NCBI GenBank assembly: GCA_963662465.1
Contig: OY759599.1
Span: forward strand, 7,008,001-7,072,000
Origin: Desulfatiglandales bacterium
Lineage (GTDB): Bacteria; Desulfobacterota; DSM-4660; Desulfatiglandales; Desulfatiglandaceae
DNA: 64,000 nucleotides
Reading direction: 5' to 3'
Position numbers and translations under genes: made by a program. Shown here in pieces: positions 437 through 62,651 of the stretch (its first letter is position 1; each line of letters begins with the position of its first letter). The notes under the pieces are model-generated. The model worked only from the letters and a program-made list of their open reading frames with translations. It made no database searches and was not told where the DNA came from.

Positions 437-742
437 GGGTGTTCCTCCGGTAAGTGAGTGTTGGCTAAACAATCCATACCGGATCGCCCATGAAATTCCA
501 AATCAAAGAAGGGGATTTTAGGCAGGGGGTAAGAGACTTCAGGATGGTCAGATGGGGTCAAGCGCTTCATCAACTTTAATATCCGGGATTTGCCCCGGCC
601 GAAAATATTTAACCATCATGTCATTAGCCCCCTGCCTACAGCCCTTTTCGGAACTTTAGTTTGGTAAACTATCACGGTAATCGGAAAATCGAAAGAAACG
701 CATGAATGCATGGGCGTCCCCCTGCCCCCGGAGCGAGCAAAA

Positions 743-1069
743 ATGGAAAGAGTTGCAGCTGACACTATTGAAAGCAGGTTTTCTTGTATGCCGAATGCAG
801 AGAAAATGTCCGTAATTACCCACGGAGCGGCGTTACTTCTTTCGGAATGGAAAAAGCGCCTTTTCCTTGCGGAAAGCAAAATTCGGCATTTTGAGGACAA
901 ATACCATTCCAGTTTGGCCGATATTGAAGAGAAAGGACTGCCTGACGATGCTGACTTCGAGATGCACGAAGAGTACATTATGTGGCGCCACTGGACGGAC
1001 GCGGCTTCGAAAGCCAGGAAAAGGGTTTCCGATTTAGAGTTCATCGCAGGACAGGGCCTGCACTGGTAA
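743..1069 (+). CDS. Small hypothetical protein, antitoxin-like
   Basis: ORF begins just after the junction motif GGGCGTCCCCC (712-722); acidic C-terminus with EEYIMW; TA context. Confidence 0.45.
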   Translation: MERVAADTIESRFSCMPNAEKMSVITHGAALLLSEWKKRLFLAESKIRHFEDKYHSSLADIEEKGLPDDADFEMHEEYIMWRHWTDAASKARKRVSDLEFIAGQGLHW

Positions 1070-1104
1070 ACCGAGCTATGTTGGCTACTGAACGACTGTT
1101 GGAG

Positions 1105-1263
1105 ATTATCTTAGACGAAATTGAATGGTCACATATCAAGGAAACGCTTCGTCTTTTAGGCGACAAAAAATCATTGGCCGCTTTGGTAGAGTCTCATGCC
1201 ATTCGTGACAGAGGTGGAAGACCTGAAGGGATCGACCCGGAAGACGCCTTCAAAGATGTATAA
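1105..1263 (+). pseudogene. Phd/YefM antitoxin, 5'-truncated copy of 20614-20880
   Basis: Near-identical to sequence from 20722 onward; N-terminus missing. Confidence 0.85.
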
Positions 1264-1429
1264 GATAATCATTGCCAAAAATGCTCAGAAAGATTTATCC
1301 TGGTTTAGAAAGAACGATAGAAGCAGTTATATAAAATGCTTCTATTTGGTGAGAGAGGTCATGCAAAATCCAAGGGGTGGCACAGGAAAACCTGAACGTC
1401 TGAAGTACTTCGAAAAAGAAGTCTGCTGA
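1256..1429 (+). pseudogene. Txe/YoeB toxin, 3'-truncated copy of 20873-21139
   Basis: GTGKPERLK motif; identity to the intact copy ends at 1424, where GCTGAAA repeats begin. Confidence 0.85.
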
Positions 1430-1509
1430 AAGCTGAAAAGATAGGGATGAGGAAAAGCTGTAGACTTGCGAGACAATGTCCCTCATTGGGCACAAGGAGA
1501 TGACGATAT

Positions 1510-1776
1510 ATGCCGAGAATAACTCTTAAAGAAACCATAATCAAAGAAATAGATATTCCAATGGAAGCGTTATATGACCTGATAGACAATCTGTCTCGGG
1601 AAGAACGGGAGAGCGTTTTGAATAGACTGCGAAAAGAACCTGTAAAGCTCAAAGTCTTCCAGAAGGATAAAATTGAATCAATTTTAGGCGATTTTACATC
1701 TACAAATATTTATGAGGATGATTTTCTAACAGATTTAGAAGAAGGTTTAAAAAAATCATCTGTTTATAGCAGATAA
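1510..1776 (+). CDS. Putative antitoxin
   Basis: 88 aa acidic ORF with an AAGGAG RBS, directly upstream of a RelE-like gene. Confidence 0.6.
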   Translation: MPRITLKETIIKEIDIPMEALYDLIDNLSREERESVLNRLRKEPVKLKVFQKDKIESILGDFTSTNIYEDDFLTDLEEGLKKSSVYSR

Positions 1777-1780
1777 CCTC

Positions 1781-2035
1781 ATGCCTTTCATAACCGAACT
1801 TAGAGACGACATTGAGAAATTCATCCAGAAGCACGGCCTTTCAAAGAAATGGGAAAAAGCCAGGAGGCTTTTTGAAAATGATCCCTCGCATCCTTCTCTA
1901 AATATCGAGCTATTGGAACCAAAACATCGGCTGATCTATTCGTTTCGTGTAGACAAAAAATTCAGAGCAATCTTCATCTGTTTGCCCGGCGAGAAAGTGG
2001 AAATAGTCGCAGTAACGAAACATTACCATAAGTGA
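1781..2035 (+). CDS. RelE/ParE-superfamily toxin
   Basis: NDPSHPSL...YSFRVDKKFRAIF...KHY pattern. Confidence 0.75.
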   Translation: MPFITELRDDIEKFIQKHGLSKKWEKARRLFENDPSHPSLNIELLEPKHRLIYSFRVDKKFRAIFICLPGEKVEIVAVTKHYHK

Positions 2036-2696: not shown

Positions 2697-3079
2697 AGGA
2701 AGGGTCGAAAAGGCGCCTACTGGGAAGATCGCTATCATGCGACGGCGATAGAAACAAACAGACATTTGTCTCAGTGTCTTGTTTACATTGACCTCAATAT
2801 GGTTCGTGCAGGAGTCGTAGATCATCCGCCGGACCAAAACCAAGTATTGCAGTAGGCAGTGAATCCTTTGTCGCCGCTACGAAAGAAGCCTTTGGAAACA
2901 AAGGGGAGGGGCGGGAAATTATTGGGGGTGATGGGAGCTATGAACTCCGAGAGACAGCAGCGGCTTACAAGGGCGTTTTTGGGGATGAAAATGCTGCTCT
3001 AAGGGTTCAAAATGAGTATTTCTGGAAAGATTCTCATTGAAAATCAATAAGATGGTGCTTAAATTCTTGGTCCGACCCC
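2697..3079 (+). pseudogene. Remnant of a RAYT-B type transposase plus its 3' end module
   Basis: RKGAYWEDRYHATAIE...YIDLNMVRAGVV is homologous to 10215-10976; ends in GGTCCGACCCC (3069-3079). Confidence 0.8.
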
Positions 3080-3832: not shown

Positions 3833-4029
3833 AACCGCTGTTATTTGGAAAAACAAGCAAAACGCATAAGAGCATAGGACGTCCCCCATGATAAAAGTGC
3901 ATCGCAAATACAGAAAACCTCTCATATTCGTGAAAAGTGACAAGTAACCCCCGAACGCCCCCCCTGGCGCACCCGTAAAAATCCTGTAAAATCATGTAAA
4001 TCCTGTCTAAAAAAAACCACTAATAAATC

Positions 4030-4066: not shown

Positions 4067-4456
4067 ATGAACACGGCATACGAACAGGAAATTCGGTACA
4101 AACTCCTGAAACTCCTGTCCGCCGAGTCACATGTATCCCAGCGGGCCATGGCGAAGGAGATGGGCATCAGCCTGGGTAAAACCAACTACGTCCTCTCGGA
4201 ACTGGCGGAAAAAGGCATCATCAAGATGAAACGTCTCAAAAACGCTCCGCAGAAAATACCCTACGTCTACATCCTCACCCCCTGGGGCCTGGAACAGAAA
4301 GCCAGAATCACCGCCCGCTTCCTGAAGCACAAAATGGCCGAATACGAAGCCATCAAAGACCAGATCAAAGACATCACCAAAGAACTCAAAACATTGGAAA
4401 ACCTGCGTAATTCAGACATGCATTTACTGAAAGAAACAGCCAAAATTAACCCCTAA
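4067..4456 (+). CDS. EPS-associated MarR-family transcriptional regulator
   Basis: SQRAMAKEMGISLGKTNY...YILTP.G...K pattern. Confidence 0.85.
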   Translation: MNTAYEQEIRYKLLKLLSAESHVSQRAMAKEMGISLGKTNYVLSELAEKGIIKMKRLKNAPQKIPYVYILTPWGLEQKARITARFLKHKMAEYEAIKDQIKDITKELKTLENLRNSDMHLLKETAKINP

Positions 4457-4847: not shown

Positions 4848-5341
4848 TATGGATATTATGACATGGATCTTTTTATTTGGCGCCGCCATAGTGCTTGGTG
4901 CCCCTTTACTGGACGCGATCGATATCGAAGGCAAAGTCATTTCAGCTGACGTTGGACTTTTGCTAAATATTTGGTTTCTGGATCATCCGGCAAGACCGGC
5001 GTAGGAATAATGCGGATAATACCAAATAGTACATTGCTTAACATCCAAAGACTTCCAAGGCAAGAAACCTATCCGCGTGTATCTGCGAAAATCTGCATCC
5101 CAATAGAGAAAATGACAGAGCAATGGAACACGATGTTCAGCGGTATTTAACAAAGAAAGTTTGTCACGCTAGTCAACAACGTCCCCTAAGTCCCCTAAAA
5201 ACACCTATTCTTGGAACATAAACACTTCATAATCAATAACTTGGGCGACCCCACGACAAGCTGATACAATCAAAGCTCCCGAAATCGAAACCCAAAAAAA
5301 ACAATCCTGAGCATCCTGAAAATCCTGTCTAAACAAACTAA

Positions 5342-6424
5342 ATGCCTCGCCAACCAAGACTTGACGCTCCCGGCCTTCTTCAACACGTAATGGCGCGGGG
5401 AATAGAACGGCGAAAGATTTTCTTCGACGACAAAGATCGGGAGGCTTTCCTGGAAAGGTTCGCCGGCATCCTCGAAGAAACACAAACCCAGTGCTACGCC
5501 TGGGCCTTGATTCCGAATCATTTTCATCTCCTCTTACGAACAGGTCCTACTCCGCTCAGCAAGGTGATGCGCCGTCTTATGACTGGGTACGCCGTCACCT
5601 TCAACAAAAGACATAAGCGCGCAGGCCATCTCTTTCAGAACCGATATAAATCCGTTGTGTGCGAAGAAGACGCCTATCTTCTGGAACTCATTCGTTACAT
5701 CCATTTGAATCCATTAAGAGCCGGTTTGGTAAAGGATCTTCAAGAACTGGACAAATACCCCTGGGCCGGCCACAGCGCCATCCTTGGCAACCGCAAAAAT
5801 CCGCTTGTTCCACCCGAGGAACCCAACGAACCCAATAAACTCAAAGAACCCAACGAGCCGATGAAGTCTCTTGCTGAGAAGACCATCGAAGACGTCCTCC
5901 TGCATTTCAGTGAAACCGCAAAAGTCGCTCGCCGAAAATACCACGAATTTGTCGAAAAAGGCATCGATCAAGGCAGACGCTCCGAATTCCAAGGGGGCGG
6001 GCTTGTTCGAAGCGCCGGCGGGAAGAAAGCAGGGCTCCTGGGTAGATCGAAAGAAGAAAGAGAGAAGGGGGATACGAGGGTATTGGGGAGCGGCGATTTT
6101 GTGACTGAGGCGTTGAGGCAAGCGGGTGAAGAATGGGAGAAGAGTTACAGGGAGAAAATGCCATTAGAAGAACTGATGAAAACGGTCGCGACCCACTTCG
6201 AAGTAGAGGAAAGTGATTTGAAGTCTTCCAGTAAGAAAAAGCAAGTGGTTGAGGCAAAATCCGCATTCGGGTATCTTGCAATTAAGAAACTGGGGTATTC
6301 AGGACGGGAAGTTGGGAGTTTTTTGAATATGAGAAGTTACAGTGCAATCAGAAGGGCTCAGGAAGGGCAAAAAGTGGTTGACAACCGAGGAGATATGTGT
6401 AAAGTATTGAAAATCATGGAATAG
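5342..6424 (+). CDS. REP-associated tyrosine (Y1/HUH) transposase, RAYT-A, with C-terminal HTH-like extension
   Basis: MPRQPR, HVMARG, PNHFHLL (HUH), GHLFQNRYKS, YIHLNP (catalytic Tyr). Confidence 0.9.
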   Translation: MPRQPRLDAPGLLQHVMARGIERRKIFFDDKDREAFLERFAGILEETQTQCYAWALIPNHFHLLLRTGPTPLSKVMRRLMTGYAVTFNKRHKRAGHLFQNRYKSVVCEEDAYLLELIRYIHLNPLRAGLVKDLQELDKYPWAGHSAILGNRKNPLVPPEEPNEPNKLKEPNEPMKSLAEKTIEDVLLHFSETAKVARRKYHEFVEKGIDQGRRSEFQGGGLVRSAGGKKAGLLGRSKEEREKGDTRVLGSGDFVTEALRQAGEEWEKSYREKMPLEELMKTVATHFEVEESDLKSSSKKKQVVEAKSAFGYLAIKKLGYSGREVGSFLNMRSYSAIRRAQEGQKVVDNRGDMCKVLKIME

Positions 6425-6466
6425 TGGCAACGTCCCCCATACGCAGTGGCAACGTCCCCCATACGC
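6423..6466 (+). repeat. Junction motif A, tandem 22-bp duplication (AGTGGCAACGTCCCCCATACGC) at the RAYT-A stop
   Basis: CAACGTCC also at 5177, 7246, 7561, 7619, 13227, 15836, 15927, 21214, 22123, 22303, 22368, 28322, 31482, 53499, 53557. Confidence 0.9.
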
Positions 6467-6492
6467 ATACGCCCATACGGAGGTTTTCACGC

Positions 6493-6744
6493 ATGGAAAT
6501 GGAATATGTTGGCGAAATCCTGCAGGATGGGCGCCTATCCCTACCGCCGGAGGTAGGAAAAGAGTTTTCAATTGGAGAAAAGGTCTCTGTTCGTTTGCGG
6601 AAAAGGTCTCGGAAAAAAACAAAGGGGCTGTCTCCTCAGGCCAGGGAGTTGATTGAACTGTTTGAACAAGCCCCTGGCAGAGGTGGCTACTGCGGAAAAG
6701 AGATAAACAGGGAATTTATCCATGAAAGAGACAATGTTTTTTGA
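6493..6744 (+). CDS. AbrB-like antitoxin
   Basis: DGRLSLPPEV motif; overlaps the PIN gene. Confidence 0.65.
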   Translation: MEMEYVGEILQDGRLSLPPEVGKEFSIGEKVSVRLRKRSRKKTKGLSPQARELIELFEQAPGRGGYCGKEINREFIHERDNVF

Positions 6745-7234
6745 TTCCAACATCTTTATCTATGCTGCTGATAAAGAATCACGATTTTATGCCGAGTCCG
6801 TTGGAATCCTCAAAGATGGTCTTCAAACAGGCCTGGCTACATGCGATCTGTGCTTTCTTGAATTCTATCAGGTCATCACGGACGGGCGAAAAACACCCAA
6901 TCTTCTACCACCTCAAGACGCCCTGACATATATTAAAAAACTGTGGAATACCCCCGAAATAGACGTTTTTGAGGTCGATATCCCTACCACCTTCTTGGAG
7001 GAAAAAAACCAGGAAGAACTTGTACGATACAACGTAATAAAATACGACATCTACGATTATCTTATTGCTTTGTGCCTTAAAATGAATGGGATAAACCAAA
7101 TTGTCACATTCAACGTAAAGGATTTCCAGAAATATCCCTGGCTGACTGTAGTGGACCCGCGTCGCAGGCCCAGTTCATTTCAAACTTCCGTGATATGCCC
7201 TCTGCCCCCAGATCCCCAAAGCAGTGGAAAATAG
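6722..7234 (+). CDS. PIN-domain (VapC-like) toxin
   Basis: FFDSNIFIY...EFY...IYDYLIA...TFNVKDF. Confidence 0.85.
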   Translation: MKETMFFDSNIFIYAADKESRFYAESVGILKDGLQTGLATCDLCFLEFYQVITDGRKTPNLLPPQDALTYIKKLWNTPEIDVFEVDIPTTFLEEKNQEELVRYNVIKYDIYDYLIALCLKMNGINQIVTFNVKDFQKYPWLTVVDPRRRPSSFQTSVICPLPPDPQSSGK

Positions 7235-7262
7235 TGGAATAGTGGCAACGTCCCCCATTACT

Positions 7263-7372
7263 TAGAAAATGGGATCAACCCGGAATTGATCGAAATGCTC
7301 TTGGACAGTCTGGTAAAAAGTCCTCACCAGGTGTTGGTTACGACTCACAGTCCCTTGATTCTGAACTACCTG
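7263..7372 (+). pseudogene. 110-bp internal fragment of the AAA ATPase gene
   Basis: Reads as identical to 25477-25586; follows motif A. Confidence 0.9.
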
Positions 7373-7751
7373 AGTTGCCAACCAATACGGAGCCAAGAAT
7401 ATTGGACAGGATCAACAAGATTAACCGGATATACGCCCTTCGCGTAGCGAATGTAGTATTTTCAATTTCTTCTCTCCGAGGCGTGGGCAAGAAATTGGAA
7501 ATGTAAACAAAAAAATCCTGAAAATCCTGTGAATCCTGTCTAAAAAAGTAACAAAAGCACCAACGTCCCCCATTACATGCCCTTGACGGTTAGAGAGGTA
7601 ACAACCTTACAAACCTGCCAACGTCCCTTATTATTTTTTTCTGCTCTGTGCCGTAATGTTCGATGCGTATATTTCGGACTATCTTCTTGCATTTCTCGGG
7701 TTAACTGGTAGTATGTCTCGGGTTTATTAACGTTAACCGAGGTGAAAACTT

Positions 7752-10125: not shown

Positions 10126-10214
10126 AGATAGCATTCCCAAAGAAACGCATAAGGGCATAGACGTTCCCATCATTCCACTATGTAACTGACGTTCCTCTTT
10201 ACACGTTGTTCTTG

Positions 10215-10976
10215 ATGCCCCGCGCCAACCGACATTTTATCCCCGGCTATATTTGGCATATCACCCATCGATGCCATAAGAAAGAGTTTCTTCTAAAATT
10301 TGACAAGGACAAAAGTCGCTGGTTATGGTGGCTATTTGAGGCGAAGAAGCGCTATGGAACGTGTATCTTGGATTACATGGTTACATCGAATCACATCCAT
10401 CTCTTGCTGTACGATATAGCTGATAGGGAATGCATTCCGAGAACAATTCAGCTGATTGCGGGCAGAACAGGGCAGGAATTCAACCAAAGAAAACGCCGTA
10501 AGGGCGCCTTTTGGGAAGACCGTTACCATGCGACTGCAGTTGAATCCCGTGAGCATTTAACCCAATGCATTTTATACATCGATCTCAATATGGTCCGAGC
10601 TGGAGTGGTGAGCCACCCATTGGAGTGGGGGCGTTTTAGCGGTTACAACGAAATTCAGAACCCTAAAGAGAGATACTCGCTCATTGATCACGCACAATTG
10701 GTGACTCTTCTCGGCAAGGAGGGCATAGATGAACTCATTGATTCGCACGCCACTTGGGTGGATGAAGCCGTGAATCAGGGAAACAAGCCACGTGAGGTCA
10801 AGTGGATGGAAAGCATCGCGGTTGGAAGCAAAGAGTTCGTGGAAAAGATCAAAGAAAAGCTGGGGGCCTTATTTCTGAGTCGTAAGGTGGAAGGGGAAGA
10901 AGGCCGGTATGAACTCCACGATCCACAACGCCCCTACAGGCTTACAGAGAATTCCTTTCCATGGCGGGATCTTTAG
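10215..10976 (+). CDS. REP-associated tyrosine (Y1/HUH) transposase, RAYT-B
   Basis: MPRANR, WHITHRC, TSNHIHLL (HUH), GAFWEDRY, YIDLNMVRA. Confidence 0.9.
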   Translation: MPRANRHFIPGYIWHITHRCHKKEFLLKFDKDKSRWLWWLFEAKKRYGTCILDYMVTSNHIHLLLYDIADRECIPRTIQLIAGRTGQEFNQRKRRKGAFWEDRYHATAVESREHLTQCILYIDLNMVRAGVVSHPLEWGRFSGYNEIQNPKERYSLIDHAQLVTLLGKEGIDELIDSHATWVDEAVNQGNKPREVKWMESIAVGSKEFVEKIKEKLGALFLSRKVEGEEGRYELHDPQRPYRLTENSFPWRDL

Positions 10977-11004
10977 CGAAAACTTTCAGCAGCTCTTTCT
11001 TAAA

Positions 11005-11104
11005 ACCCGCTTTTTAGGGGCAAAAAGGGGGTTTTAAGGCTCTAAAACAAGCTTCTTTTTGTGGTTATCGTAGTTATTACAAGTTGTTGCTGAGGTCCGA
11101 CCCC
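11005..11104 (+). repeat. RAYT-B 3' end module ending in motif B (GGTCCGACCCC)
   Basis: Related ~100-bp modules end at 3079, 12301, 12576, 21489, 23409; bare motif at 3376, 9065, 9381, 20568. Confidence 0.8.
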
Positions 11105-11361
11105 AAGAAAAATTTGCAAACCCCAAGAAAACAATAAAATTGAAATTCTCATCCGTCCCCCATTGCGCCAAAATTATTACAGAAAACATCCTAACCCCTG
11201 CGGCTTTCCGCTTCGGGTGCCTTTGTAATCCGGCTTGTCGAAGATGCCGAAATGCGGTGTCCCGTGAAATTGACGAAGTCAAGAGCGGAGCTCATTAGGA
11301 TAGCTTGCCCGATCCCAGCCCCCCAATGGATGCCCCCCTTATGATGTGTAAGCCCTAATGC

Positions 11362-12783: not shown

Positions 12784-13256
12784 TATCCAAGTGTCTATGG
12801 GAACATCGGAATTGGAAGAGTATGTTCACAACGTTCTCCATTGGCTATCCCCTCCGAAGGACTGTGTGCAGTAAAAATTCAGTTGCCTGAATTCTTACTG
12901 CGACAACAAGAAAAAAACAGTGGAATCCGTGTCATCCGCCGTGCCCCGTTGAACCAGGTCCCCTTTCAGGGTGTTCAACTGGGGTGCCAAAAAAAGACTA
13001 ACGACCTCCCTTATTAAGAGTCAAGCAAAGACTTGACCCTTATGTTGCGTGCCAAAATCTTGAGTTACTGAATTACAAATGGACGTCCCCCAGATTCCCT
13101 CAAGTTCAAGTATGATGAGTGCTTGGAAAAACGATGATATCACGGCAGAGGAGATTTTTGATGCCTGATATCGGCGCCCTTGCTTTGGTGAAACATGAAT
13201 ACAGCGATAAAATAGTGGAATAGTGGCAACGTCCCCCATTACACGGATGAACTGAT

Positions 13257-13805: not shown

Positions 13806-13918
13806 CAAAGGTCTGCCTAGATTCAATAGCCCTTTGTTTCGAAAATTTTGTCATTATGCTTTTGTAAAAAGCCCTTAAAAAAAATCCTGTAAAATCCTGT
13901 AAATCCTGTCTAAAAAAA

Positions 13919-14326
13919 ATGGAACAAGAAGACCTGACCCACAAAATTATCGGCTGTGCCTACAAAGTATACAACAGACTGGGCTTCGGCTTCCTGGAAA
14001 GCATCTACCACAAAGCCATGCTGATCGAACTCGCAAGGGCCGGACTAAAAGCAGAATCTGAAAAAGGCTTAACCGTTCATTATGATGAGATGGTTATTGG
14101 AGAGTTCTCAGCCGACATATTTGTGGAAAATGAAATCATCGTAGAACTCAAAGCGGTTGAGCGGCTGATGAAAGTGCATGAAGTGCAAGTGGTGAACTAC
14201 CTAACAGCATCGAAAAATGAAATTGGCCTCCTAATAAACTTCGGCCCAACAGGCGTCAAAGTCACCCGCAAATACCGAAAATCCCTCAAACAGGCACAAA
14301 GAATCAACCCAAAAAAAATCCTGTAA
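13919..14326 (+). CDS. GxxExxY protein
   Basis: GFGFLESIY, ADI.VE..IIVELK, Q..NYL, GLLINFG. Confidence 0.9.
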   Translation: MEQEDLTHKIIGCAYKVYNRLGFGFLESIYHKAMLIELARAGLKAESEKGLTVHYDEMVIGEFSADIFVENEIIVELKAVERLMKVHEVQVVNYLTASKNEIGLLINFGPTGVKVTRKYRKSLKQAQRINPKKIL

Positions 14327-47508: not shown

Positions 47509-49071
47509 ATGGGAGCAACTCCAGCACTTTCTTCCCTGGAATATCCTTATGGTCAGAGTCATGATTATTTTGAGCGCATCATAAGTATCCTTGATTCCGG
47601 TGAGGGAAATTCGATGGATATGAGCAAATTAGAACAGGAGCTTGAGAAGCGGGGGCGTGAGTTGATGCGCATTTTGCTTCAGGAACATCTTAATAACCGC
47701 AGCCCCGGCAAAAGCCGTGAACCTGTGAAGGATGTAGATGGAATCAAACGAATTGAAACACCTGCCCATGAACGAAAGATTGAAACAGTGTTCGGCAGGG
47801 TTGAGCTCAATCGTGCCGGATACGGCAATCAAGGATGTAAAAGTCTTCACCCGCTGGATGCCGAACTGAACCTTCCCCCAGAGATTTATTCATTGGAGCT
47901 ACAGCGAAGAGTAGCAGAAGACGCGGCAAAGAACTCTTTTGATGAGGTTGTGGAAACCATCGCTAAAACCACCGGCGGGAATGTGCCCAAACGCCAGGCC
48001 GAAGAAGTGGTTCAACGTGCAGCCCGGGACTTCGATGCATTTTATGAGACGCACAAATGCCGATGTTCAGAAGAAAAAGCTACAGGATCCGTGTTGGCAA
48101 TTACCGCTGATGGGAAGGGCGTGGTACTCCACGAAAGAGACCTCAGAGAAAAAACACGCAAAGCAGCTGAAAAACGCAGACAAAAGATGGAAAAGCGGCT
48201 CTCGCAAGGGGAAAAAAAGAATGCCAAACGTATGGCCACTGTAGCCGCTGTATACACTACCGATTCATTTGAGCGCAGTCCTGATGACCTGCTTTCCGAA
48301 AGCGGTCCTCGCATCAAAAAAATGAAACGGCCACCTATAGAAAATAAACGAGTTTGGGCCAGTCTTGAAAAAGAACCTGAAGAGGTTATTAAAGAGGCTT
48401 TTACCGAGGCTCAAAACCGGGACCCAAACCATAAGAAAAACTGGGTGGCATTGGTTGATGGAAACAATACTCAGATCAACATTCTGCGCAACATTGCCAA
48501 AACCCAAGGCATTGACCTGACCATCATTGTAGATGTTATTCATGTTATAGAATACCTTTGGAATGCCGGCAGAGTCTTTCATCCTGAATCCGGTCCAGAG
48601 CTCGAACAATGGGTCGAACATCGTCTGAGGAAAATTCTTGAGGGAAAGGCAGGACACATGGCTGGCGGGATGCGCCGAAGTGCCACAAGAAAAAAAATCA
48701 GCGAAAAAAAACGAGAACCTGTAGACAAATGCGCCACCTACCTGCTCAATAAATCTCCTTATCTCAAATATAACCGCTATCTTTCCAAGGGTTTTCCTAT
48801 TGGAACCGGCGTTATTGAGGGAGCATGCCGGCATCTTGTAAAAGACCGGATGGAAATTACAGGGGCTAAATGGACCCTTCAGGGAGCCGAAGCAGTATTA
48901 CGGTTACGAGCCTTACGTTCAAGCAAGGACTTCGATGAGTACTGGACTTTTCATGAGGATTATGAGTACAAACGAAATCATCAAGCACTCTATGCTGATG
49001 GCTCGGTTCCTGCCACAACAAACTCAAAGTCATCTACTAAAAACACCGGCCATCTTAAAATAATCAAGTAA
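47509..49071 (+). CDS. ISKra4-family transposase
   Basis: PLDAELNLP, TADGKG, LVDG, DVIHV.EYLW, IGTGVIEGAC. Confidence 0.9.
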   Translation: MGATPALSSLEYPYGQSHDYFERIISILDSGEGNSMDMSKLEQELEKRGRELMRILLQEHLNNRSPGKSREPVKDVDGIKRIETPAHERKIETVFGRVELNRAGYGNQGCKSLHPLDAELNLPPEIYSLELQRRVAEDAAKNSFDEVVETIAKTTGGNVPKRQAEEVVQRAARDFDAFYETHKCRCSEEKATGSVLAITADGKGVVLHERDLREKTRKAAEKRRQKMEKRLSQGEKKNAKRMATVAAVYTTDSFERSPDDLLSESGPRIKKMKRPPIENKRVWASLEKEPEEVIKEAFTEAQNRDPNHKKNWVALVDGNNTQINILRNIAKTQGIDLTIIVDVIHVIEYLWNAGRVFHPESGPELEQWVEHRLRKILEGKAGHMAGGMRRSATRKKISEKKREPVDKCATYLLNKSPYLKYNRYLSKGFPIGTGVIEGACRHLVKDRMEITGAKWTLQGAEAVLRLRALRSSKDFDEYWTFHEDYEYKRNHQALYADGSVPATTNSKSSTKNTGHLKIIK

Positions 49072-53046: not shown

Positions 53047-53724
53047 AAGACCACCTCCTGAACAGAAGCTACAGGTCTTTGCCTAAAACGGTCAATTTAT
53101 TCAAATTGTTAAAACGGTAATGATCGCTCGCATGAAATGGTGGCAGCCGGTCATAAAAAAGCCACCATCTTTTACGGCAGGTAAAGCGGAAGGGCTACCA
53201 TTCAAATCCTCTTGTCTCATACGCAATAAAAAACCGCCGGTCCATGGGCGGGGTAAGCGGGGTACGGATTTATCAATCCTTAGGGCGGGATCAGCGGGGT
53301 ACTGGCAACATAATCAGACTCGCAACATAATGACCCCACTCCTACAAAACCCAAAACCATCTTTGCTCTCTTCGTTACCTTCTGTAAAAAGCCCTTAAAA
53401 AAAATCCTGTAAAATCCTGTAAATCCTGTAAATCCTGTCAAAAAAGATCGGAAAATCGAAAGAAACGCATGAATGCATGGGCGTCCCCCTACCCTTTGCA
53501 ACGTCCCCCATTACATGCCCTTGACGGTTAGAGAGGTAACAACCTTACAAACCTGCCAACGTCCCCATTAAGTATTTATGGGATATTGGACGATCGGGCC
53601 GTCCAGCACTACTTTGAACTGGGCTGTGAGGTCGAAGGCCTGGGCCGCGGGCATGTTAAGCGAATCAAGGATCAGGTGCGAAACGCTTCTCAAAACCGGC
53701 AAGAAGAAACGGGGGTAAGTCAAA

Positions 53725-53961
53725 ATGGAAACCATAATTGAGCTAAATGACAAAAAGATGCAGTTGAAGGAGTGTATTGCCCAAATAGAGAAAACGGGCA
53801 AAACTCTAATTATTTCCCGCGGCAAAAAGCCGGTGGCCAAGTTGATACCACACAAAAGCAAGGACCCGCTCAGTATGGACCCGACGTTGAGGGGTGCTTT
53901 TTTTGTCGATGACCCGATGGCTCCCCTGTCGGAAGCTGATTGGCCCGAGGCGTTTCGATGA
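53725..53961 (+). CDS. Phd-like antitoxin (copy 2)
   Basis: Near-identical to 23709-23945. Confidence 0.8.
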   Translation: METIIELNDKKMQLKECIAQIEKTGKTLIISRGKKPVAKLIPHKSKDPLSMDPTLRGAFFVDDPMAPLSEADWPEAFR

Positions 53962-54344
53962 TTCTACTCGATACGCACGCCATTGTTTGGCTTGCTTCAG
54001 ACCAGGATCGGTTTACGGAGAAGGGGCGAGCATTGATCAGGGATAATGCGGGCCAGCTGTATGTCTCTGTTGTGTCTGCGTGGGAGATATCCATGTTGCA
54101 CAAACGAAATCGCCTGCAACTGCCCATGGAGCCGGAACAGTATGTTGATCGCCTCATCAAACAGCATGATTTGAACGAAGTGCCTTTGGAGCGAAAAGTT
54201 GTTCAGCTTTCTGTTCGTTTGCCTGATATCCACAATGATCCCTTCGATCGGGTGCTCATTGCTCTGTGCCGGGAAGAGGGATGGCTTCTTCTGTCAAAGG
54301 ACAAAATTATTCGGAAGTACCCGAGCGTACAGATTGCATGGTGA
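53958..54344 (+). CDS. VapC PIN toxin (intact copy)
   Basis: ILLDTHA, SAWEI, HNDPFDR. Confidence 0.88.
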   Translation: MILLDTHAIVWLASDQDRFTEKGRALIRDNAGQLYVSVVSAWEISMLHKRNRLQLPMEPEQYVDRLIKQHDLNEVPLERKVVQLSVRLPDIHNDPFDRVLIALCREEGWLLLSKDKIIRKYPSVQIAW

Positions 54345-54710
54345 ACAATTAATCCCGAGGTAACAAGTCTTGAACAAGGACCGGATAAACGGACACCTTC
54401 ACCTTTAAGCTTTTATAAAAACAGCGTAATCTGTGAAATCCGCCTGCCCCGTTCAATTTTTACCCCGTTGAACCTTCTTTTTCCTTTGTTTAACTGGAGC
54501 ACGCCAGTGACGAGTGGAACGTATTTAACCGGGGTGCCAAAAAAACTAAAGGTTCACCAGTAAAGTAACAAAAGCACCAACGTTATGTAAGAGTTGGCAA
54601 CTCAAAACCCAAAACTCAAAACCCAACACCATCTTTGCTCTCTTCGTTACCTTTTGTAAAAAGCCCTTAAAAAAAATCCTGTAAAATCCTGTAAATCCTG
54701 TCTAAAAAAA

Positions 54711-56949
54711 ATGGAACAAGAAGACCTGACCCACAAAATTATCGGCTGTGCCTACAAAGTATACACAGCAATTCCCGCTTAGATTCTAAAGGCGCTAGGA
54801 CAGTACCTTTTGGCATTTCCTTTTCGTAAAGCTTTACGTTGAATGAATAGCCTGAAAAGGCTTTTTTCTCCAATTTTTAAAATAAAACAGGAATTTTTTT
54901 GGCAATTCTCAGAAAAAGCTGGACTTTCAGATCAACTTGGCCGATGATTACTGCCTATGGGAATCAGAAGCCAAAAAGGAAGAAAAGAGAGAGGCAAGAT
55001 TGGAGTTCGCAAGCATCTTAATGCAGATGCAATTTTCAAGCGTCTGCATAAAGATTTTTCTGAAGTCTCTGACTGCCGTGAGGATCCCGATATTACTATT
55101 GCGGATGCCTTGATGTCCGGGTTTGCAATGTTTTCGCTCAAGGAGCCATCGTTGCTTGCCTTTGATGAAAGAAGAAAAACCGATAGTAATCTTGGGAACA
55201 TATACCATATTGGAAAGATCCCATGTGACAGTACGATGCGCACCATTCTTGATGAAGTGCTCGCAGAAGAACTTCGGAAACCGTATAGGAATATCTTCTG
55301 GGAACTGCAAAGGGGAAAGGTGCTTGAACGTATGGTATTTTTCGAAGGTTGTTATCTTCTATCTTTGGATGGAACGGGTTTCTTCTCATCGAAGAAACTT
55401 TCCTCTGATAGTTGTTTGGTAAAAGTATCGAAAAAAACCGGCGAAAAAACCTATTATCAGCAGATGTTGGGGGCAGCAATTGTCCATCCGGATTTCAAAG
55501 AGGTCATTCCGCTTGCTCCGGAATTCATAGTCAAGCAGGATGGCCAAAGCAAGAACGACTGTGAGCGTAATGCCGCGAAACGTTTCTTGCAAAAGCTAAA
55601 AGAGGAGCATCCCCATCTGCCTATCATTATAACAGAGGACGCGTTAAGTTCGAATGCACCCCACATTGAAGAAATACAAAAGCAAAATTTTCATTATATT
55701 CTGGGAGTTAAAAAAGGAGATCACCATTTCTTGTTTAATCACGTCGAACAAGCGCGGATAAATGGTGACGTCACTGAATTCGAATTGGTCGATAAAGAGG
55801 ATCCGGAAAAAATACATCGTTTCCGATTTATTAACCAGGTACCTCTCAATGCCTCTAACAAGAATATGCTGGTTAACTTTCTGGAATATTGGGAAATTAC
55901 ACCGAAAAAAACAAAACATTTTAGTTGGGTGACAGATTTTTTAATAGGAAAGGACAATGCATACCAGCTAATGCGAGGCGGCCGTGCGAGATGGAAGATC
56001 GAAAATGAAACCTTCAATACTCTTAAGAACCAAGGATATCATTTTGAACACAACTACGGGCTCGGCAAGAAGAATCTGAGTGTTGTTTTTGCGATGCTCA
56101 TGATGCTGGCATTCTTGGTGGATCAAACTCAACAGCTTTGTTGCCCTCTATTTATAGCCGCATGGCATAAACTCGGCTCAAAAAGGGAATTGTGGGAACG
56201 GATGAGAGCTTTGTTTAGAGATTTTGAATTCAAATCGATGAGGATGCTCTATGAAGCCCTCTATTATGGCGTAAAGTTTCAAGCGCCAGTTATTCTATAT
56301 AACAGTGGTTAAATTTGTCATGCCCAAGTTCGCATACAAAAATGCTCTCATTAATAAAAAACTGGAGATTCCGGAAATGGATATCTCTGCCCTAACTCGT
56401 GCTTTTATGCTCTTACTCTTGTCAAAGAAGCTCAACCTGCAAGAAATCGAGGGAGGTAATAGTGGATTTAATACAATTTTTCTGAAAAGGATCTGATCTC
56501 AGGGTTTGTTTTTGAAATATGTTTTTCAAACTCTGTGAGTAAATTCTTGACCGGGAATTGCTGAAGTATACAACAGACTGGGCTTCGGCTTCCTGGAAAG
56601 CATTTACCACAAAGCCATGCTCATCGAACTCGCAAGGGCCGGACTAAAAGCAGAATCTGAAAAAGGCTTAACCGTTCATTATGATGAGATGGTTATTGGA
56701 GAGTTCTCAGCGGACATATTTGTGGAAAATGAAATCATCGTAGAACTCAAAGCGGTTGAGCGGCTGATGAAAGTGCATGAAGTGCAAGTGGTGAACTACC
56801 TAACAGCATCGAAAAATGAAATTGGCCTGCTAATCAACTTCGGCCCAACAGGCGTCAAAGCTACCCGCAAATACCGAAAACCCCTCAAACAGGCACAAAG
56901 AATCAACCAGAAAAAGAAACCCAAAAAAAATCCTGTTAATCCTGTCTAA
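54711..56949 (+). pseudogene. GxxExxY protein interrupted by an IS
   Basis: Matches the 13919 gene on both sides of the insertion. Confidence 0.9.
54766..56563 (+). mobile_element. 1798-bp DDE IS, copy 2 (transposase 54957-56312)
   Basis: TIR CAGCAATTCCCG; 9-bp TSD AAGTATACA. Confidence 0.92.
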
Positions 56950-57051
56950 AAAAAATACAAAAAATTGTATCCAGTCAGAAACTGGGCACCTAAATTCTCA
57001 CTGCAAAAAAAACCGTTGACATCTTCCCCGTCTTCGCCTAGTGTTCGCCCC

Positions 57052-57438
57052 ATGAACCATCTTTACGAACAAGAAATACGCTACAAAGTCCTGAAACTCC
57101 TGGCATCCAAGGCCAATCTCTCCCAGCGGGAAATGGCCAAACAAATGGGCATCAGCCTGGGGAAAACCAACTATGTCCTCACAGAACTGGCCAACAAGGG
57201 CATCATCAAAATAAAACGATTCAAAAGCGCCCCCAGCAAAGTCCCTTACACCTACACGCTGACACCCCAAGGCCTTGAAGAGAAGGCCAAAATAACCCTC
57301 AAATTCCTGAAACGGAAACTCTCTGAATACGAAGAGATCAAGCGACAGATAAAAGAGATTGCAAAAGAAGCCGAAAAAGACAAAGTTCTCGATGCCACAG
57401 GCGCCGACACAAACGAAGTATTGGCTCAAATCATTTAA
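57052..57438 (+). CDS. EPS-associated MarR regulator
   Basis: Near-identical to 28704-29090. Confidence 0.85.
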   Translation: MNHLYEQEIRYKVLKLLASKANLSQREMAKQMGISLGKTNYVLTELANKGIIKIKRFKSAPSKVPYTYTLTPQGLEEKAKITLKFLKRKLSEYEEIKRQIKEIAKEAEKDKVLDATGADTNEVLAQII

Positions 57439-57663
57439 CGAAAGAAAACAGCAATTATTCCAGTCATATAAATGATTTTCCGTTATGGAAATCAAAGAGC
57501 GGAGCCGTCTCCGAAGGCTGAGCCCCCCGAGAATTCGGGTGCCTGAATTTTAATGCAACACCCCTTTGCTCCAACAATAAATCCCCTTCGTTTTCTTCGT
57601 TACCTTCTGTAAAAAACAAATCCTTGAAATCCTGTTAATCCTGTCAAAAAAAAAGGCCTAAAA

Positions 57664-59990: not shown

Positions 59991-59992
59991 AA

Positions 59993-60265
59993 ATGGAAAA
60001 TGAGTTAAGAGATTTCAGGCAAAAAATAGTTCAGTATTTTTCCGAAATAAGCGATGACCAACTCCGTAAAGATATGGAAAAGGCCGGATATGAGGTTTAT
60101 AAAAATGTAGACGTCCATATTTTGAGCGATGCTGTTTCTGAAGAAGAATTTACATTTTCGGTAAAGAGCAGAACAGCCAGGACTGCCTTCAACAAAGTAG
60201 ACCTTAGGTTTCATAACGTTTTTACGCCAGACAACTATCCATATAATTTCAAGATTGCTGCTTAA
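59993..60265 (+). CDS. Putative chaperone-addicted antitoxin
   Basis: 90 aa; aromatic-rich tail ending NYPYNFKIAA. Confidence 0.55.
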   Translation: MENELRDFRQKIVQYFSEISDDQLRKDMEKAGYEVYKNVDVHILSDAVSEEEFTFSVKSRTARTAFNKVDLRFHNVFTPDNYPYNFKIAA

Positions 60266-60280
60266 AGGCGCCTTCATAAA

Positions 60281-60745
60281 ATGATGACAAGTCAGGCACA
60301 ATTCAAACACCATCCCATCTGTTTGAGGGATGTGCGGGTTATAGAACTATACATCAGAGGAAATATCCATCCTGATGAAATCAACGAAGAGCAAGCAGCG
60401 AGGAACTCATCAATTAACGTTGGTCATTCTGAATACGACACGGCAAACCATCGTATAGTTGTGGGTCTCACTTTAGAACTCAAAGAGGGTGAGGAAAAGG
60501 AAAGTGAATTGCCCTATTTCCTCAAGGTTGAATTAGCAGCCTTGTTCGAAGTTGATGAGTCTAAGTTCGACAAAGAACACATTTATGATTGGGCTAGAAG
60601 GAACGCGCCATTTATTCTTTTTCCATACCTAAGAGAAGAAGCTTATGCTCTCACAATAAGGGCTGGTTATAAGCCGTTAATTCTTCCTCTTCTTGAAGTT
60701 CCTACATTTCAATCCGAAAGAATGGCTCCAACAGCTGAACTGTGA
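60281..60745 (+). CDS. SecB-like chaperone
   Basis: LKVELAALF...NAPFILFPYLRE...T..AGY.PLILP. Confidence 0.85.
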   Translation: MMTSQAQFKHHPICLRDVRVIELYIRGNIHPDEINEEQAARNSSINVGHSEYDTANHRIVVGLTLELKEGEEKESELPYFLKVELAALFEVDESKFDKEHIYDWARRNAPFILFPYLREEAYALTIRAGYKPLILPLLEVPTFQSERMAPTAEL

Positions 60746-60814
60746 GCAATTCTTTTCGCAAAAGAAATCCTGTAAAATCCTGTTAATCCTGTCAAAAAAA
60801 CCGGAGAACCGTTG

Positions 60815-61986
60815 ATGCAACAGAAACAACCCAATGCAACCATCAACAACGCCTCCTCTCCTCTCGGCGTGTCCACCTCCCCCAGCGGAGAGGCGTTCCC
60901 TTTGATCTTTTTGGAAAATTCCGTACCTGAACCGGGGCATTTCCCCCGTGGAGGCTGAAGATCCGGATGTGGCGCCCTTGATTCAACGGTGTGTACAGGA
61001 CAAAAAGACCCTCACCGCCACCTTTACCTACGACGCCCTGTCCCTTGCGGACGTGGTGGTAGTGGATGTTCAGTGCGATTACCACAAGGAGAGCCTGGGG
61101 AATGTTCGTCAGGGACATGCCGACATAGAGGCGCTGGAAGAGAGTCTCAAGATTATCGGAGAGAAGATTGAACCGCACTGTCTGGTCTTGATCGAAACGA
61201 CCGTTCCTCCCGGCACCACGGAGTATGTGGCATACCCCATCATAAAAAAGGCCTTTGAAGCGCGCGGCCTTTTTCAGAGATCAGATGTCGAAGATCAGCG
61301 ATCAGAGCAGGCAAATCCCGAATCAGAGCCCCAATCTCAGTCCTCCTTGCCCCGTGAAATTCACGTCAGTGACGAGCGCAGCGAATTTCACCGGGGTGAC
61401 CTCCGACCTCTGACCTCTGTCCTCTGACGTCTGTCCTCTGTCCTCTGACGTTTGTCCTCCGTCCTATGGGTCGGATAGTGGCCGCCTCCAAAATTATTCA
61501 AGCGCTTGAATCGGAGAAGCCGGCGACAGATAGATGTAAGAGTTGGAAACTCAAAACCCAACACCATCTTTGCTCTCTTCGTTACCTTCTGTAAAAAGCC
61601 CTTAACAAATATCCTGTAAAATCCTGCCTGCCCCGTAGCTCCGGCAGATGGTACTGGGGTTAATCCTGTCTAAAAAAAGGTCCCGGTTTTTCAGGAACCA
61701 GGACAAACTGAAGGAAACCGCCGTTCAGGATGACCTGGATCAGACCCTGTCCGGAGCTGATGCCATTATCCTGGCCGTACGACACCAGGCCTATCTTGAT
61801 CTGGAGCCGGATAAGGTGGTGAAAATGATCGGTGGTCCGGCGGCCGTGGTGGACTGCTTCGGGGTGTCGGACGACGACGCCATCAAGCGGTATTTCGAGT
61901 TGGGCTGCGAAGTGAAAGGTCTCGGCCGAGGGCACATCAAACGCATTAAAGATGAGGTTCGAAACGCTTTTCAAAACCAGCAATAA
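60815..61986 (+). pseudogene. Nucleotide-sugar dehydrogenase, fragmented
   Basis: VVVDVQCD, LIETTVPPGTT; C-terminal LAVRH...VKGLGRGH; middle replaced by repeats. Confidence 0.8.
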
Positions 61987-62141
61987 AGAAAATGGCTACA
62001 GGCAGTAGGAAATGGGGGCCTTTTCGAACCTATAACCCATGGCCTATCGCCTATCAGCCATTACCAAAATCCTGAAAATCCTGTAAATCCTGTCTAAAGA
62101 AGAAGAGCTATGTTCAACAAAATATTAAGGAAAGGGTTTAC

Positions 62142-62651
62142 ATGGATATTAAAAACGCAAAAATCCTGGTTATCGGTGGCGCAGGCTTTATCGGCAGTCA
62201 TGTTGTGGCGGAATTGCTCAAAACAGATGTTGCTGAAATCCTCATCTAAGACAATTTTACAAGAGGAAAACACGACAACATATCCCCGTACCTCGGCGAT
62301 CCACGCTGTACGGTCTACCCCAATGGCGGTGATATTCGGGATACCGATGTGCTGGCCGATGCCATGACGGGGTTGATGACGTTGTACACCTCGCCGCCAT
62401 GTGGCTGCTCCACTGCAAGGATTACCCCCGGACGGCCTTTCATGTAAACATTGAGGGCACATTTAATGTCTTGGAGGCCTGCGTTAAAAGCAATGTGAAA
62501 CGGCTGGTTTATTCTTCTTCCGCCTCTTTGTATGGCGATGCTGTTGAAGTCCCTATGACCGAGGAGCATCCGTTCAATAAATGTGCTTGCCCTTCAATCC
62601 GATATCAACGACGAATTTTACAATGTTGGTACTGGCGTACAAACCAGTATA
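62142..62651 (+). pseudogene. NAD-dependent epimerase/dehydratase, degraded and IS-interrupted
   Basis: ILVIGGAGFIGSH, VNIEGTFNVL, YSSSAS, YNVGTG; stops and frameshifts. Confidence 0.85.

Follow-up and report, generated by a model that had tools for sequence, protein, structure and literature searches.

Introduction

To our knowledge, no bacterial device for stockpiling and reshuffling promoterless gene cassettes is well understood apart from the integron, which requires a tyrosine recombinase and folded attC sites. Among HUH enzymes, the two-tyrosine Rep-type proteins of IS91, ISCR and Helitron elements carry out one-ended rolling-circle capture, and IS608 inserts 3' of TTAC. Here we analyze a 64,000-nt stretch of DNA (the window), positions 7,008,001-7,072,000 of the single-contig 8.16-Mb genome of a Desulfatiglandales bacterium (labeled G000). 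It is best explained as holding most of a ~45-kb unidirectional cassette array, further pieces of which have been scattered by insertion sequence (IS) insertions. Each unit of the array is a toxin-antitoxin (TA) pair, a candidate defense gene, a transposase gene or a gene fragment; a 16-nt word stands at the unit ends, and two genes for Y1 transposases, RAYT-A and RAYT-B, lie among the units.

The TnpA_REP (RAYT) proteins are single-strand DNA transposases, and PMC6006769 describes a subclass 2.1.2 that combines a Y1 core with a Bac_DnaA_C-like tail. The authors report having found no repetitive extragenic palindrome (REP)-like sequence next to subclass 2.1 genes and give them no function, and subclass 2.1 is also left without REPs or a role in bioRxiv 10.1101/2020.03.09.984088. 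PMC6006769 also states that IS608 and ISDra2 target the lagging-strand template. PMC3733652 describes TIRYTs and TIRtrons, with a G-rich terminal inverted repeat (TIR) of consensus GGGG[AT][CG]A[CG]. In the procA clusters of marine picocyanobacteria, TnpA_REP subclass 2.1 genes are interspersed with arrays of small genes and co-occur with these arrays across genomes, and the transposase is present as many truncated fragments, mostly C-terminal (bioRxiv 10.1101/2020.03.09.984088). An expansion of the procA arrays by the transposase was proposed in that work, and a later note by its authors stated that the evidence neither supports nor rejects causation.

The arrays described below are real, polar, delimited by the motif, free of integrases and recurrent. 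Their best explanation, to which we give a probability of roughly 0.6, would be the excision and insertion of cassettes at the 16-nt word by the associated Y1/HUH enzyme.

Results and Discussion

A polar word stands at the unit ends

The G+C content of the window is 44%, against 49.5% for the genome. The 8-mer CAACGTCC matches the window 18 times, 17 times on the + strand and once on the - strand (shuffled sequences gave 1.17 ± 1.02, largest 4). An initial reading of the DNA from its letters (the first-pass annotation) had listed 17 + strand copies, which stood, and had noticed no reverse copy, which did not, as one is present at 39007-39014 within a recombinase-trio insertion. A 16-nt word, CAACGTCCCCCATTAC, begins with this 8-mer, and the + to - counts of the word in the window are 8:0 with up to one mismatch, 11:0 with up to two, 19:1 with up to three and 30:2 with up to four. 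A genome-wide check of strand and enrichment, proposed in the same annotation, went against the bare 8-mer, which is unpolar (89+/90-), and in favor of the exact 16-mer (9+/0-, 7 of the 9 within the window). At up to three mismatches, 26+/1- matches to the word fall within 6.996-7.041 Mb versus 62+/49- in the remaining genome. The latter are mostly noise, with smaller real clusters at 38-57 kb, 92-104 kb (on the - strand), 7.06-7.11 Mb and 8.09-8.15 Mb.

The complete unit end is a composite of ~32 nt, in which two tandem half-repeats of ~8 nt (16 nt together) precede the invariant CAACGTCCCCCATTAC. About ten sequence types of half-repeat were seen, such as AATAGTGG twice, AAGTTTAT/AAGTTGA and AACCTTAC/AAACCTTC. 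These types are common to several genomes and to transposase and non-transposase units alike. Folding 260 nt around 22 motif sites revealed no shared hairpin, and Rfam at gathering thresholds gave no match in the whole window. Judged by eye, the AATAGTGG-type end has partial dyad symmetry (7/10 around CAACGT) and the other end types have none. Xer-dependent dif modules are built of two inverted 11-nt recombinase-binding arms with a 6-nt spacer between them.

A second motif, GGTCCGACCCC, had likewise been described as polarized, and its copies in the window (five exact and four with one mismatch, where 0.6 were expected) are indeed all on the + strand; the genome-wide count is 16+/9-.

3069-3079, 11094, 12566, 20568 and 23399, + strand: exact copies of GGTCCGACCCC
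3376, 9381, 12290 and 21479, + strand: copies of GGTCCGACCCC with one mismatch

Layout and gene content of the array

The left edge of the array lies near genome position 6,996,900, ~11 kb upstream of the window. Within the window, the main part is broken by two IS elements at 16445-20230, and a second segment, set off from the first by IS and recombinase-trio insertions, carries copies of a PIN toxin unit and of a GxxExxY plus MarR-like unit.

1-32100, + strand: main part of the array, short units (TA pairs, candidate defense genes, Y1 genes and fragments) with motif ends between them
53345-57650, + strand: second array segment, with motif copies at 53499, 53557 and 54578

Every open reading frame (ORF) with a Pfam match at 1-33 kb is on the + strand, the 25 minus-strand ORFs scanned there gave no Pfam match, and the minus-strand matches at 33-64 kb are recombinase-trio or IS genes. 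The Pfam-matched ORFs bear out the earlier statement that all recognizable genes outside the IS and recombinase-in-trio insertions point the same way. The + strand genes with Pfam support encode PIN, MazE, ParE, HicA, Phd/YoeB, UPF0175/DUF3368 and ORF6N proteins, as well as GxxExxY/PDDEXK_3, MarR-like HTH_24, ATPases and three Y1_Tnp proteins, and PADLOC placed three units in the candidate defense families PDC-S01, PDC-S05 and PDC-M25A. The polysaccharide setting that had been claimed for the locus was also recovered in the window, in the form of DegT, GFO/IDH-hexapeptide, UDP-glucose dehydrogenase and epimerase fragments.

Discrete units and truncation scars

The junctions at which the word bounds a unit, or is fused to part of a gene, are the following.

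6445-7261, + strand: complete unit of orf106 and PIN toxin, ending in the motif at 7246-7261
7246-7372, + strand: motif, then an internal piece (110 nt) of an ATPase gene, 100% identical to 25477-25586; junction 1 nt past ...CATTAC
7561-7634, + strand: gene-less 58-nt unit between motifs 7561 and 7619
22123-22250, + strand: motif, then a copy of the last 114 nt of a beta-CASP gene (35960-36073, 96%)
28322-28580, + strand: motif, seven unrelated bases, then a 5'-truncated GxxExxY/PDDEXK_3 gene (profile 57-110 of 117; the same as 14085 onward)
31482-32088, + strand: motif (CAACGTCCCCCACCCCATTAC), then directly a DegT aminotransferase gene reduced to its 3' half (profile 195-345 of 360)

Over 817 nt, the unit of orf106 and the PIN toxin shares 89% identity with one in G081, a genome of another genus (see below). 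The motif is present at all four ends, the flanks are unrelated between the two genomes, and similarity stops within ~2 nt after ...CCCCCATT. The gene-less unit is present twice (7561-7627 is the same as 53499-53565), and tandem 12-nt copies of GTCCCCCATTAC were seen.

The scars give the clearest signal, which is one-sided: an intact motif, 0-7 nt, and a gene interior that continues as far as its normal 3' end. Four such junctions are found in G000 (the ATPase piece, GxxExxY, the beta-CASP tail and the DegT 3' half). In G081, eight of 28 RAYT-A pieces found by tblastn have their start within -8 to +14 nt of the end of a motif. They begin at residues 140, 144, 182, 194, 212, 217, 297 and 312 and extend toward the 3' end of the gene, which brings the number of 5'-truncated pieces adjoining a motif to twelve. 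No 3'-truncated RAYT-A piece abutting a motif was found in G081. The matching 5' halves of the truncated genes were not found upstream, so the scars look like faulty excisions or truncated copies rather than split genes. Copying does occur, since the 110-nt ATPase piece is 100% identical to an intact source 18 kb away. The fixed 3' end and variable 5' end of the scars, which recall one-ended capture, could just as well stem from faulty excision.

An enrichment of breakpoints at the motifs, which the first-pass annotation had proposed to look for by self-alignment of the window, was observed: of the 128 ends of 32 aligned pieces, 16 are no more than 10 nt from a motif, where random placement gave 4.3 ± 2.0 (maximum 15 in 2000 draws), a generous count in that some pieces are alike only through holding the motif. 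In the same analysis of G081, a motif was no more than 10 nt away from 103 of the 406 right ends and from 48 of the 406 left ends, with 11.8 ± 3.3 expected. The raw ORFs of G081 gave untidy medians (105 nt from stop to motif and 134 nt from motif to start), from which we draw no claim.

Four public sequencing runs, all as assembled contigs, were also examined, and no circle junction was seen in them; stretches left uncovered in two of the runs carry no evidential weight. Marine metagenome joints were found at the motif edges 7259, 7574, 11107 and 15822 with sides of only 22-30 nt, and these joints may simply be the repeat itself.

Arrays in other genomes

The exact 16-mer CAACGTCCCCCATTAC was found in other genera and families of the same order, and it builds arrays in further genera of a single Desulfobacterales family. 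The loci below carry it on one strand only (counts are array strand to other strand, at up to three mismatches for G081), when a reversed-pattern control gave 0-4 matches a genome.

G081 (another genus, two contigs), 150 kb: motif 103:0
G075 (L060): motif 23:0
NaphS2 locus (L061; named isolate record, Delta proteobacterium NaphS2): motif 8:0
L059: motif 4:0

The G081 array covers ~120 kb and holds more than 100 units; successive motifs are a median of 714 nt apart. Its gene repertoire is that of G000, with the same TA and defense genes and a full-length DegT gene, and it continues into a polysaccharide locus that encodes a Wzx-like flippase, NeuB and a 2-epimerase. RAYT-A is its commonest unit, with ~20 loci among ~100 units, all on the array strand. 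Only IS transposases and one serine recombinase score on the other strand, and no Phage_integrase or other tyrosine recombinase was found among the 140 + 55 ORFs scanned in that array.

Polysaccharide genes adjoin arrays or single motif copies in five of seven loci (G000, G081, L009, L011 and L013), with no such neighbors at G075 or L012. This setting would suit an explanation in which long polysaccharide operons use the word as a signal, at the level of the transcript or of regulation (for processing, anti-termination or the binding of a regulator), in which TA genes settling there carry it along, and in which the junctions are incidental decay, as would the position of the motif, which is always co-oriented with genes, intergenic and often 15-40 nt upstream of a start codon. 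Genes resembling an EPS-associated MarR regulator also recur in the arrays, the one at 14479-14775 scoring 66.6 bits against NCBIfam TIGR04176, under the cut-off of 88. Such a signal, however, would leave unexplained the twelve fusions of an intact motif to a truncated gene, the gene-less 58-nt units, the 12-nt tandem copies of GTCCCCCATTAC and the enrichment of repeat ends at the motif. In addition, solitary Y1 genes at a distance from any polysaccharide locus have inverted repeats that end in the motif core (see below), and the G075 array begins after folate-metabolism genes rather than polysaccharide genes. We therefore regard a purely regulatory word as improbable.

A sample of 61 genomes of the family was used to compare the distribution of the motif with that of RAYT-A, a RAYT-A-clade match being a best E value of 1e-90 or lower. 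Such a match is present in all five genomes with at least 10 motif copies and in eight of the 21 with any copy; conversely, the motif is held by eight of the 10 genomes with a match versus 13 of the 51 without one. The corresponding Fisher tests (p = 0.002 and 4e-5) are inflated by relatedness and assembly quality.

Unit-level gain or loss was not readable in comparisons with G010, the closest relative, or with G004, of the same genus, both being rearranged at the locus. G010 is 89-92% identical in the left flank and syntenic up to 6,996,861, after which its DNA corresponds to 4.30-4.26 Mb of G000. The left edge of the array is thus a rearrangement breakpoint relative to G010 (6,996,861 and 4,299,700; L016/L017), and a motif-like site is present at 4,300,490. 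Arrays may seed large inversions. Elsewhere in G000, identical motif-bearing stretches with the same flanks occur at 37.8-57.5 kb and 8.09-8.12 Mb (position pairs 37867/8090813, 37941/8090887 and 39580/8092526), which is a recent large duplication that includes array material.

Y1 transposases associated with the motif

The window contains three Y1 transposase genes and associated elements.

5342-6424, + strand: RAYT-A, 360 aa; Pfam Y1_Tnp (50.2 bits) N-terminal and Bac_DnaA_C (40.3 bits) C-terminal
6428-6465, + strand: two tandem motif copies (CAACGTCCCCCATACG twice), starting 4 nt past the RAYT-A stop codon
30158-31461, + strand: second RAYT-A-family gene, frameshifted, with Y1_Tnp and Bac_DnaA_C in separate frames; motif 31482 lies downstream
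10206-10976, + strand: RAYT-B, 256 aa; Y1_Tnp only, 27% identical to RAYT-A
10996-11108, + strand: 113-nt repeated element after RAYT-B; hairpin with 17-nt arms (10999-11038), linker, GGTCCGACCCCAAG

RAYT-A is a one-tyrosine IS200-type protein whose HUH (NHFHLLL) and tyrosine helix (RYIHLNP) motifs are intact in the alignment, and its Bac_DnaA_C helix-turn-helix scores above the cut-off (31.5). A phmmer search of RAYT-A against solved structures gave nothing significant (E of at least 0.3). Its named relatives are from Desulfobacterales metagenome-assembled genomes and Delta proteobacterium NaphS2. Among RAYT-A copies, the N-terminal domain is 81-91% conserved and the C-terminal helix-turn-helix part 46-58%. 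The motif had been reported to follow RAYT-A directly, and it does (stop 6424, motif start 6428); in fact the word lies 4-20 nt past the stop codon in all six full-length RAYT-A-clade genes, from six genomes.

The relation of the motif to this protein family extends beyond the arrays. Five Y1 paralogues of 334-337 aa scattered in G000, plus L028, are flanked by inverted repeats with the outer end GAACGTCCCC. In the G000 paralogues, GGACGTTCGTCAG upstream is matched by CTGACGAACGTCCCC downstream, and at L028 CTAGGGGACGTCCGTGAAATA is paired with its own complement. This layout is that of the TIRtron, as given in PMC3733652, and its outer end is the motif core. In named records, the more distant homologues have ACGTCCCC on both strands (1/1 or 2/2) and the closer ones have co-oriented copies only. 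For RAYT-A itself, the copies on either side (5177 upstream; 6428 and 6450 downstream) are all in direct orientation. A search for inverted repeats near the three Y1 genes of the window returned only chance-level pairs, save for the hairpin after RAYT-B.

The claim that RAYT-B is also followed by a motif was correct as far as GGTCCGACCCC lies downstream of it (stop 10976, motif 11094) at the end of the 113-nt element, where the 17-nt-arm hairpin is ~55 nt upstream of GGTCCGACCCC. Other copies of the element are at 21381-21493 and 23301-23413. The other copies of RAYT-B in G000 are fragments, with seven of ten matches in 7,002,452-7,018,973, in the array region. GGTCCGACCCC is present 13:0 on the array strand of G081, yet a RAYT-B relative was not found in that array, making the tie of GGTCCGACCCC to RAYT-B the weaker one; GGTCCGACCCC is a second polar junction element.

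A proposed mechanism and its weaknesses

In the mechanism that we propose, an enzyme of the TnpA_REP (RAYT) kind, a Y1/HUH single-strand DNA transposase with a helix-turn-helix like that of DnaA domain IV, would build and reshuffle the array. This helix-turn-helix is predicted to read the variable half-repeats by binding them, and the HUH core would nick the motif-bearing strand at, or just 3' of, ...CATTAC. Nicks at two successive motifs would free the unit between them as a single-strand circle and reseal the array, and the reverse reaction would place a unit 3' of any motif; units would therefore pile up head to tail in one direction. A second nick at a non-cognate place would fuse an intact motif to a 5'-truncated unit. 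Binding, cleavage, the circle, and the strand and base that are cut are all predictions from sequence. Of the first-pass proposal that RAYTs capture DNA and stack it at their end motifs, the structural half held up through polarity, recurrence, co-occurrence of the enzyme and the repeat ends of the paralogues, and the mechanistic half is what we infer here.

Cumulative GC skew placed the origin of G000 near 5.77 Mb and the terminus near 1.79 Mb, which makes the + strand at 7.0 Mb the lagging-strand template. The motif strand has more G than C in all three arrays (skew 0.032-0.048), G081 and G075 being judged from local skew alone. These strand data fit the model and are not decisive, since gene orientation would give the same bias and minority clusters lie on the opposite strand.

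The alternative to be weighed most carefully is that RAYT-A is a mere passenger and that the units are moved by an unrecognized recombinase with its gene elsewhere, or by homologous or illegitimate recombination between the ~30-nt ends. Several observations that weigh against excision and insertion by the Y1/HUH enzyme are of this kind. The motif after the RAYT-A stop codon may only mark the gene as one more unit, because every unit ends in a motif. One to six motif copies are found in the 13 of 51 genomes without a strong RAYT-A match, and two genomes with a strong match hold no copy; many of these assemblies are fragmented. The 16-nt word lacks a conserved hairpin, whereas the well-studied Y1 enzymes recognize hairpins. 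Two serine recombinase genes lie within the G081 array. A passenger role, however, leaves several facts to be accounted for: Y1 is the only recombinase common to the arrays, the window being without a resolvase and the G081 array without a tyrosine recombinase; homologous recombination leaves the one-sided fusions of motif and gene interior unexplained; paralogous Y1 genes that stand apart from arrays have the motif core at the ends of their inverted repeats; and RAYT-A is the commonest unit of the G081 array. We consider it unlikely that RAYT-A is a passenger, while taking this alternative more seriously than a regulatory role of the word.

The remaining points on the unfavorable side concern the enzyme and the arrays themselves. 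RAYT-A (71.9 bits) and RAYT-B (60.5 bits) both score under the cut-off of 80 for the NCBIfam family REP_Tyr_transpos (NF047646). No inverted partner motif was found upstream of RAYT-A in the inverted-repeat search, so that the gene is neither a REPtron nor a TIRtron. Minority clusters of the motif are found on the opposite strand of the same replichore, at 91.8-103.8 kb, 7.090-7.108 Mb and 8.15 Mb. Repeat ends in G081 are mainly away from motifs (303/406 right ends and 358/406 left ends), and the aligned pieces are non-independent. The strongest contig joints in the sequencing runs (5186>14085 and 4900>4975) are G000's own second copies. Finally, the closest relative, G010, is without the array at the shared left flank.

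The array is not an integron

The array had been described as integron-like with neither IntI nor attC, and our searches agree with this description: no integrase is present in the array, no attC site was found at the motifs, and larger arrays stand in integrase-free genomes. In G000, five matches exceed the integron-integrase cut-off, four of them full-length, in addition to fragments, none in the array; the nearest to the window is a split gene ~150 kb away. G081 and G075 gave no integron integrase, the best scores being 84 and 97 bits against the TIGR02249 cut-off of 265. The attC scan was a purpose-written, fold-based search for hairpins bounded by AAC...GTT, rather than IntegronFinder. 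It found canonical ~86-nt sites (CGCGAAC...GTTCGCG) to the left of the 6.79-Mb integrase and to the right of the 3.29-Mb integrase. In the whole genome, this ~86-nt attC-like family has 52 matches, which cluster close to integrases, and 6.99-7.11 Mb is free of them. Over the window and its surroundings (94 kb), the fold-based scan gave five sporadic matches, none at a motif.

An integron, or a cluster of attC sites lacking an integrase (CALIN), was ruled out as a reading of the array by the integrase search, the attC scan and the integrase-free arrays of G081 and G075. An atypical form, in which an integrase-less attC cluster is served in trans by one of the integrases encoded in the genome, would draw on the five integrase matches of G000 and on the fact that sedentary chromosomal integrons typically have TA-rich unidirectional arrays. 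It is nevertheless extremely improbable given the split state and the distance of the nearest integrase, the motif regions, which show neither R''/R' pairing nor a long imperfect hairpin when the same scan recovers canonical sites, and the fully polar arrays of G081 (103:0) and G075 (23:0), with no integron integrase in either genome.

True integrons (3.20-3.35 Mb, 6.73-6.79 Mb and other places) coexist with the motif arrays in one cell.

Additional features of the window

Further copies of the motif are spread over the array.

5177-5192, + strand: motif copy in direct orientation upstream of RAYT-A, at the right edge of a duplicated unit (4975-5186 is the same as 28120-28331, 100%)
13227-13242, + strand: motif copy of the AATAGTGG x2 type, 14 nt upstream of the ORF6N start
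15836-15942, + strand: two motif copies (15836 and 15927), downstream of the PIN gene ending at 15817
21214-21229, + strand: motif copy 75 nt past the YoeB stop codon
22303-22383, + strand: two motif copies (22303 and 22368), 65 nt apart
23547-23554, + strand: shortened motif variant CAACGTTA
9580, 12829, 24561, 30008, 32629 and 54578, + strand: further CAACGTT copies

The variant CAACGTTA lacks 6 nt of the C-run, as judged from its sister copy at 53557, which reads CAACGTCCCCATTA.

In a third repeat, two or three copies of (A)ATCCTGT, spaced at 10-11 nt, are followed by CTAAAAAA.

3974-4024, 5296-5346, 7507-7557, 13877-13927 and 14311-14361: third repeat (ATCCTGT type)
14427-14477, 22246-22296, 28565-28615 and 30885-30935: third repeat (ATCCTGT type)

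It is often directly upstream of a start codon (GxxExxY, MarR-like, RAYT-A) or of a motif end, and might serve as promoter, operator or binding array; its strict 3-nt-spaced pattern was not found in the G081 array. Short tandem arrays are present at 22384-22480, 2077-2140 and 32677-32756. One, of GGTGTAAGGTGTAAGG..., comes after the motif at 22368, and GGGATGAGGGATGA-type repeats lie upstream of several units.

MarR-like HTH_24 genes are present in every array, in the window at 14479-14775, 28617-29090, 56965-57438 and 4067-4456. An OLD/AbiL-like ATPase at 24631-26048 matches PADLOC PDC-M25A in two overlapping frames (297 and 211 bits) and is probably frameshifted.

Identical 1798-bp IS copies occur at 54766-56563 and 16445-18242. 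The copy at 54766 splits a GxxExxY gene and shows a 9-bp target duplication (13965-13973 on both sides). Inserted between the array segments, at 36335-45384, are two recombinase-in-trio-like sets of genes for tyrosine recombinases, together with a Transposase_29 gene; the Transposase_29 element has its second copy, in inverted orientation, at 62649-64000. In the 46607-49071 region, an ORF with a DruA/DUF4338 match directly precedes an ISKra4-family transposase gene (NCBIfam 357.6 bits), and is probably an IS accessory gene rather than a Druantia defense gene.

Comparison with known systems

Sedentary chromosomal integrons resemble the present arrays in their long unidirectional stacks of short single-gene or TA units, each with a site-like end repeat, in their gene-less units, and in units common to several genera. 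The present arrays differ in that an integron integrase is missing from two of the three array-bearing genomes. The ends here are a 16-nt word with tandem half-repeats and not a folded 60-140-nt attC, the enzyme is an HUH/Y1 nuclease and not a tyrosine recombinase, and one-sided truncation scars are common.

The likeness to IS91/ISCR elements drawn by the first-pass annotation is sound as an analogy, in that one end is fixed, the other is variable and adjacent gene fragments are captured as in IS91, ISCR and Helitron elements. It fails as a classification, the enzyme being of the one-tyrosine IS200 type; the fixed end in the present arrays is also the 3' end of each unit, and Pfam scans of the window and of the G081 array gave no two-tyrosine Rep-type HUH gene. 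With the IS200/IS605 family (IS608 and ISDra2), which transposes by peel-and-paste, the arrays share a Y1 HUH protein, an active strand that lies on the lagging-strand template in the main array, and foreign DNA joined directly 3' of a short word ending in TTAC. Subterminal hairpins were not found at the 16-nt word, although the GGTCCGACCCC element does carry a hairpin. Unlike in the IS200/IS605 elements, the left end has the same sequence as the right, cargo genes rather than the transposase alone lie between the ends, and the elements are stacked rather than dispersed.

RAYT and TIRYT systems come closer in the enzyme. RAYT-A combines a Y1/HUH core with a C-terminal Bac_DnaA_C-like helix-turn-helix, as does subclass 2.1.2, and is assigned to TnpA_REP subclass 2.1 by domain architecture only; its G000 paralogues are true TIRtrons, with repeat ends that contain the ACGTCCCC core. 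REPs and TIRs, however, are non-coding and dispersed or in inverted pairs, whereas the copies described here are direct, clustered and gene-delimiting. There is no palindrome at the motif as in a REPtron, and RAYT-A has no inverted partner and is present in many copies, not one. As for the procA clusters, their transposase genes face procA, neither a delimiting motif nor an inverted repeat turned up there, and amplification is confined to one gene family, whereas the genes in the present arrays are co-oriented and diverse, with a conserved word between them. By analogy, the prochlorosin gene arrays of marine picocyanobacteria may nevertheless rest on the same chemistry.

A broader and more tentative proposal, short of our confidence in excision and insertion by the Y1/HUH enzyme, is that of an 'HUH integron'. 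RAYT group 1 / subclass 2.1 enzymes would excise and insert single-strand cassettes at the 16-nt word on the lagging-strand template, within polar Desulfobacterales arrays of more than 100 TA, defense and other units that often lie in surface-polysaccharide loci; the half-repeats would be specificity tags read by the rapidly diverging helix-turn-helix, and several enzyme-end pairs would share an array. Our literature search found no description of an HUH/Y1 cassette array, nor of the motif in bacteria, the matches to the motif string being unrelated animal, plant and fungal papers only. Such a one-way stack of small TA and defense units, all with the same 16-nt word at their ends and accompanied by a single-strand DNA transposase in place of an integron integrase, seems to be a route for collecting and shuffling genes that has not been described before. 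If true, it would give TnpA_REP subclass 2.1 / RAYT group 1 a testable function and a candidate substrate, supply biochemistry, and possibly the making of single-strand DNA tools, with a short and defined DNA word, and might explain the build-up of TA and candidate defense genes within the surface-polysaccharide loci of sulfate reducers. Set beside the integron, it would be a second, independent invention of cassette capture, based on an HUH nuclease and a 16-nt word.

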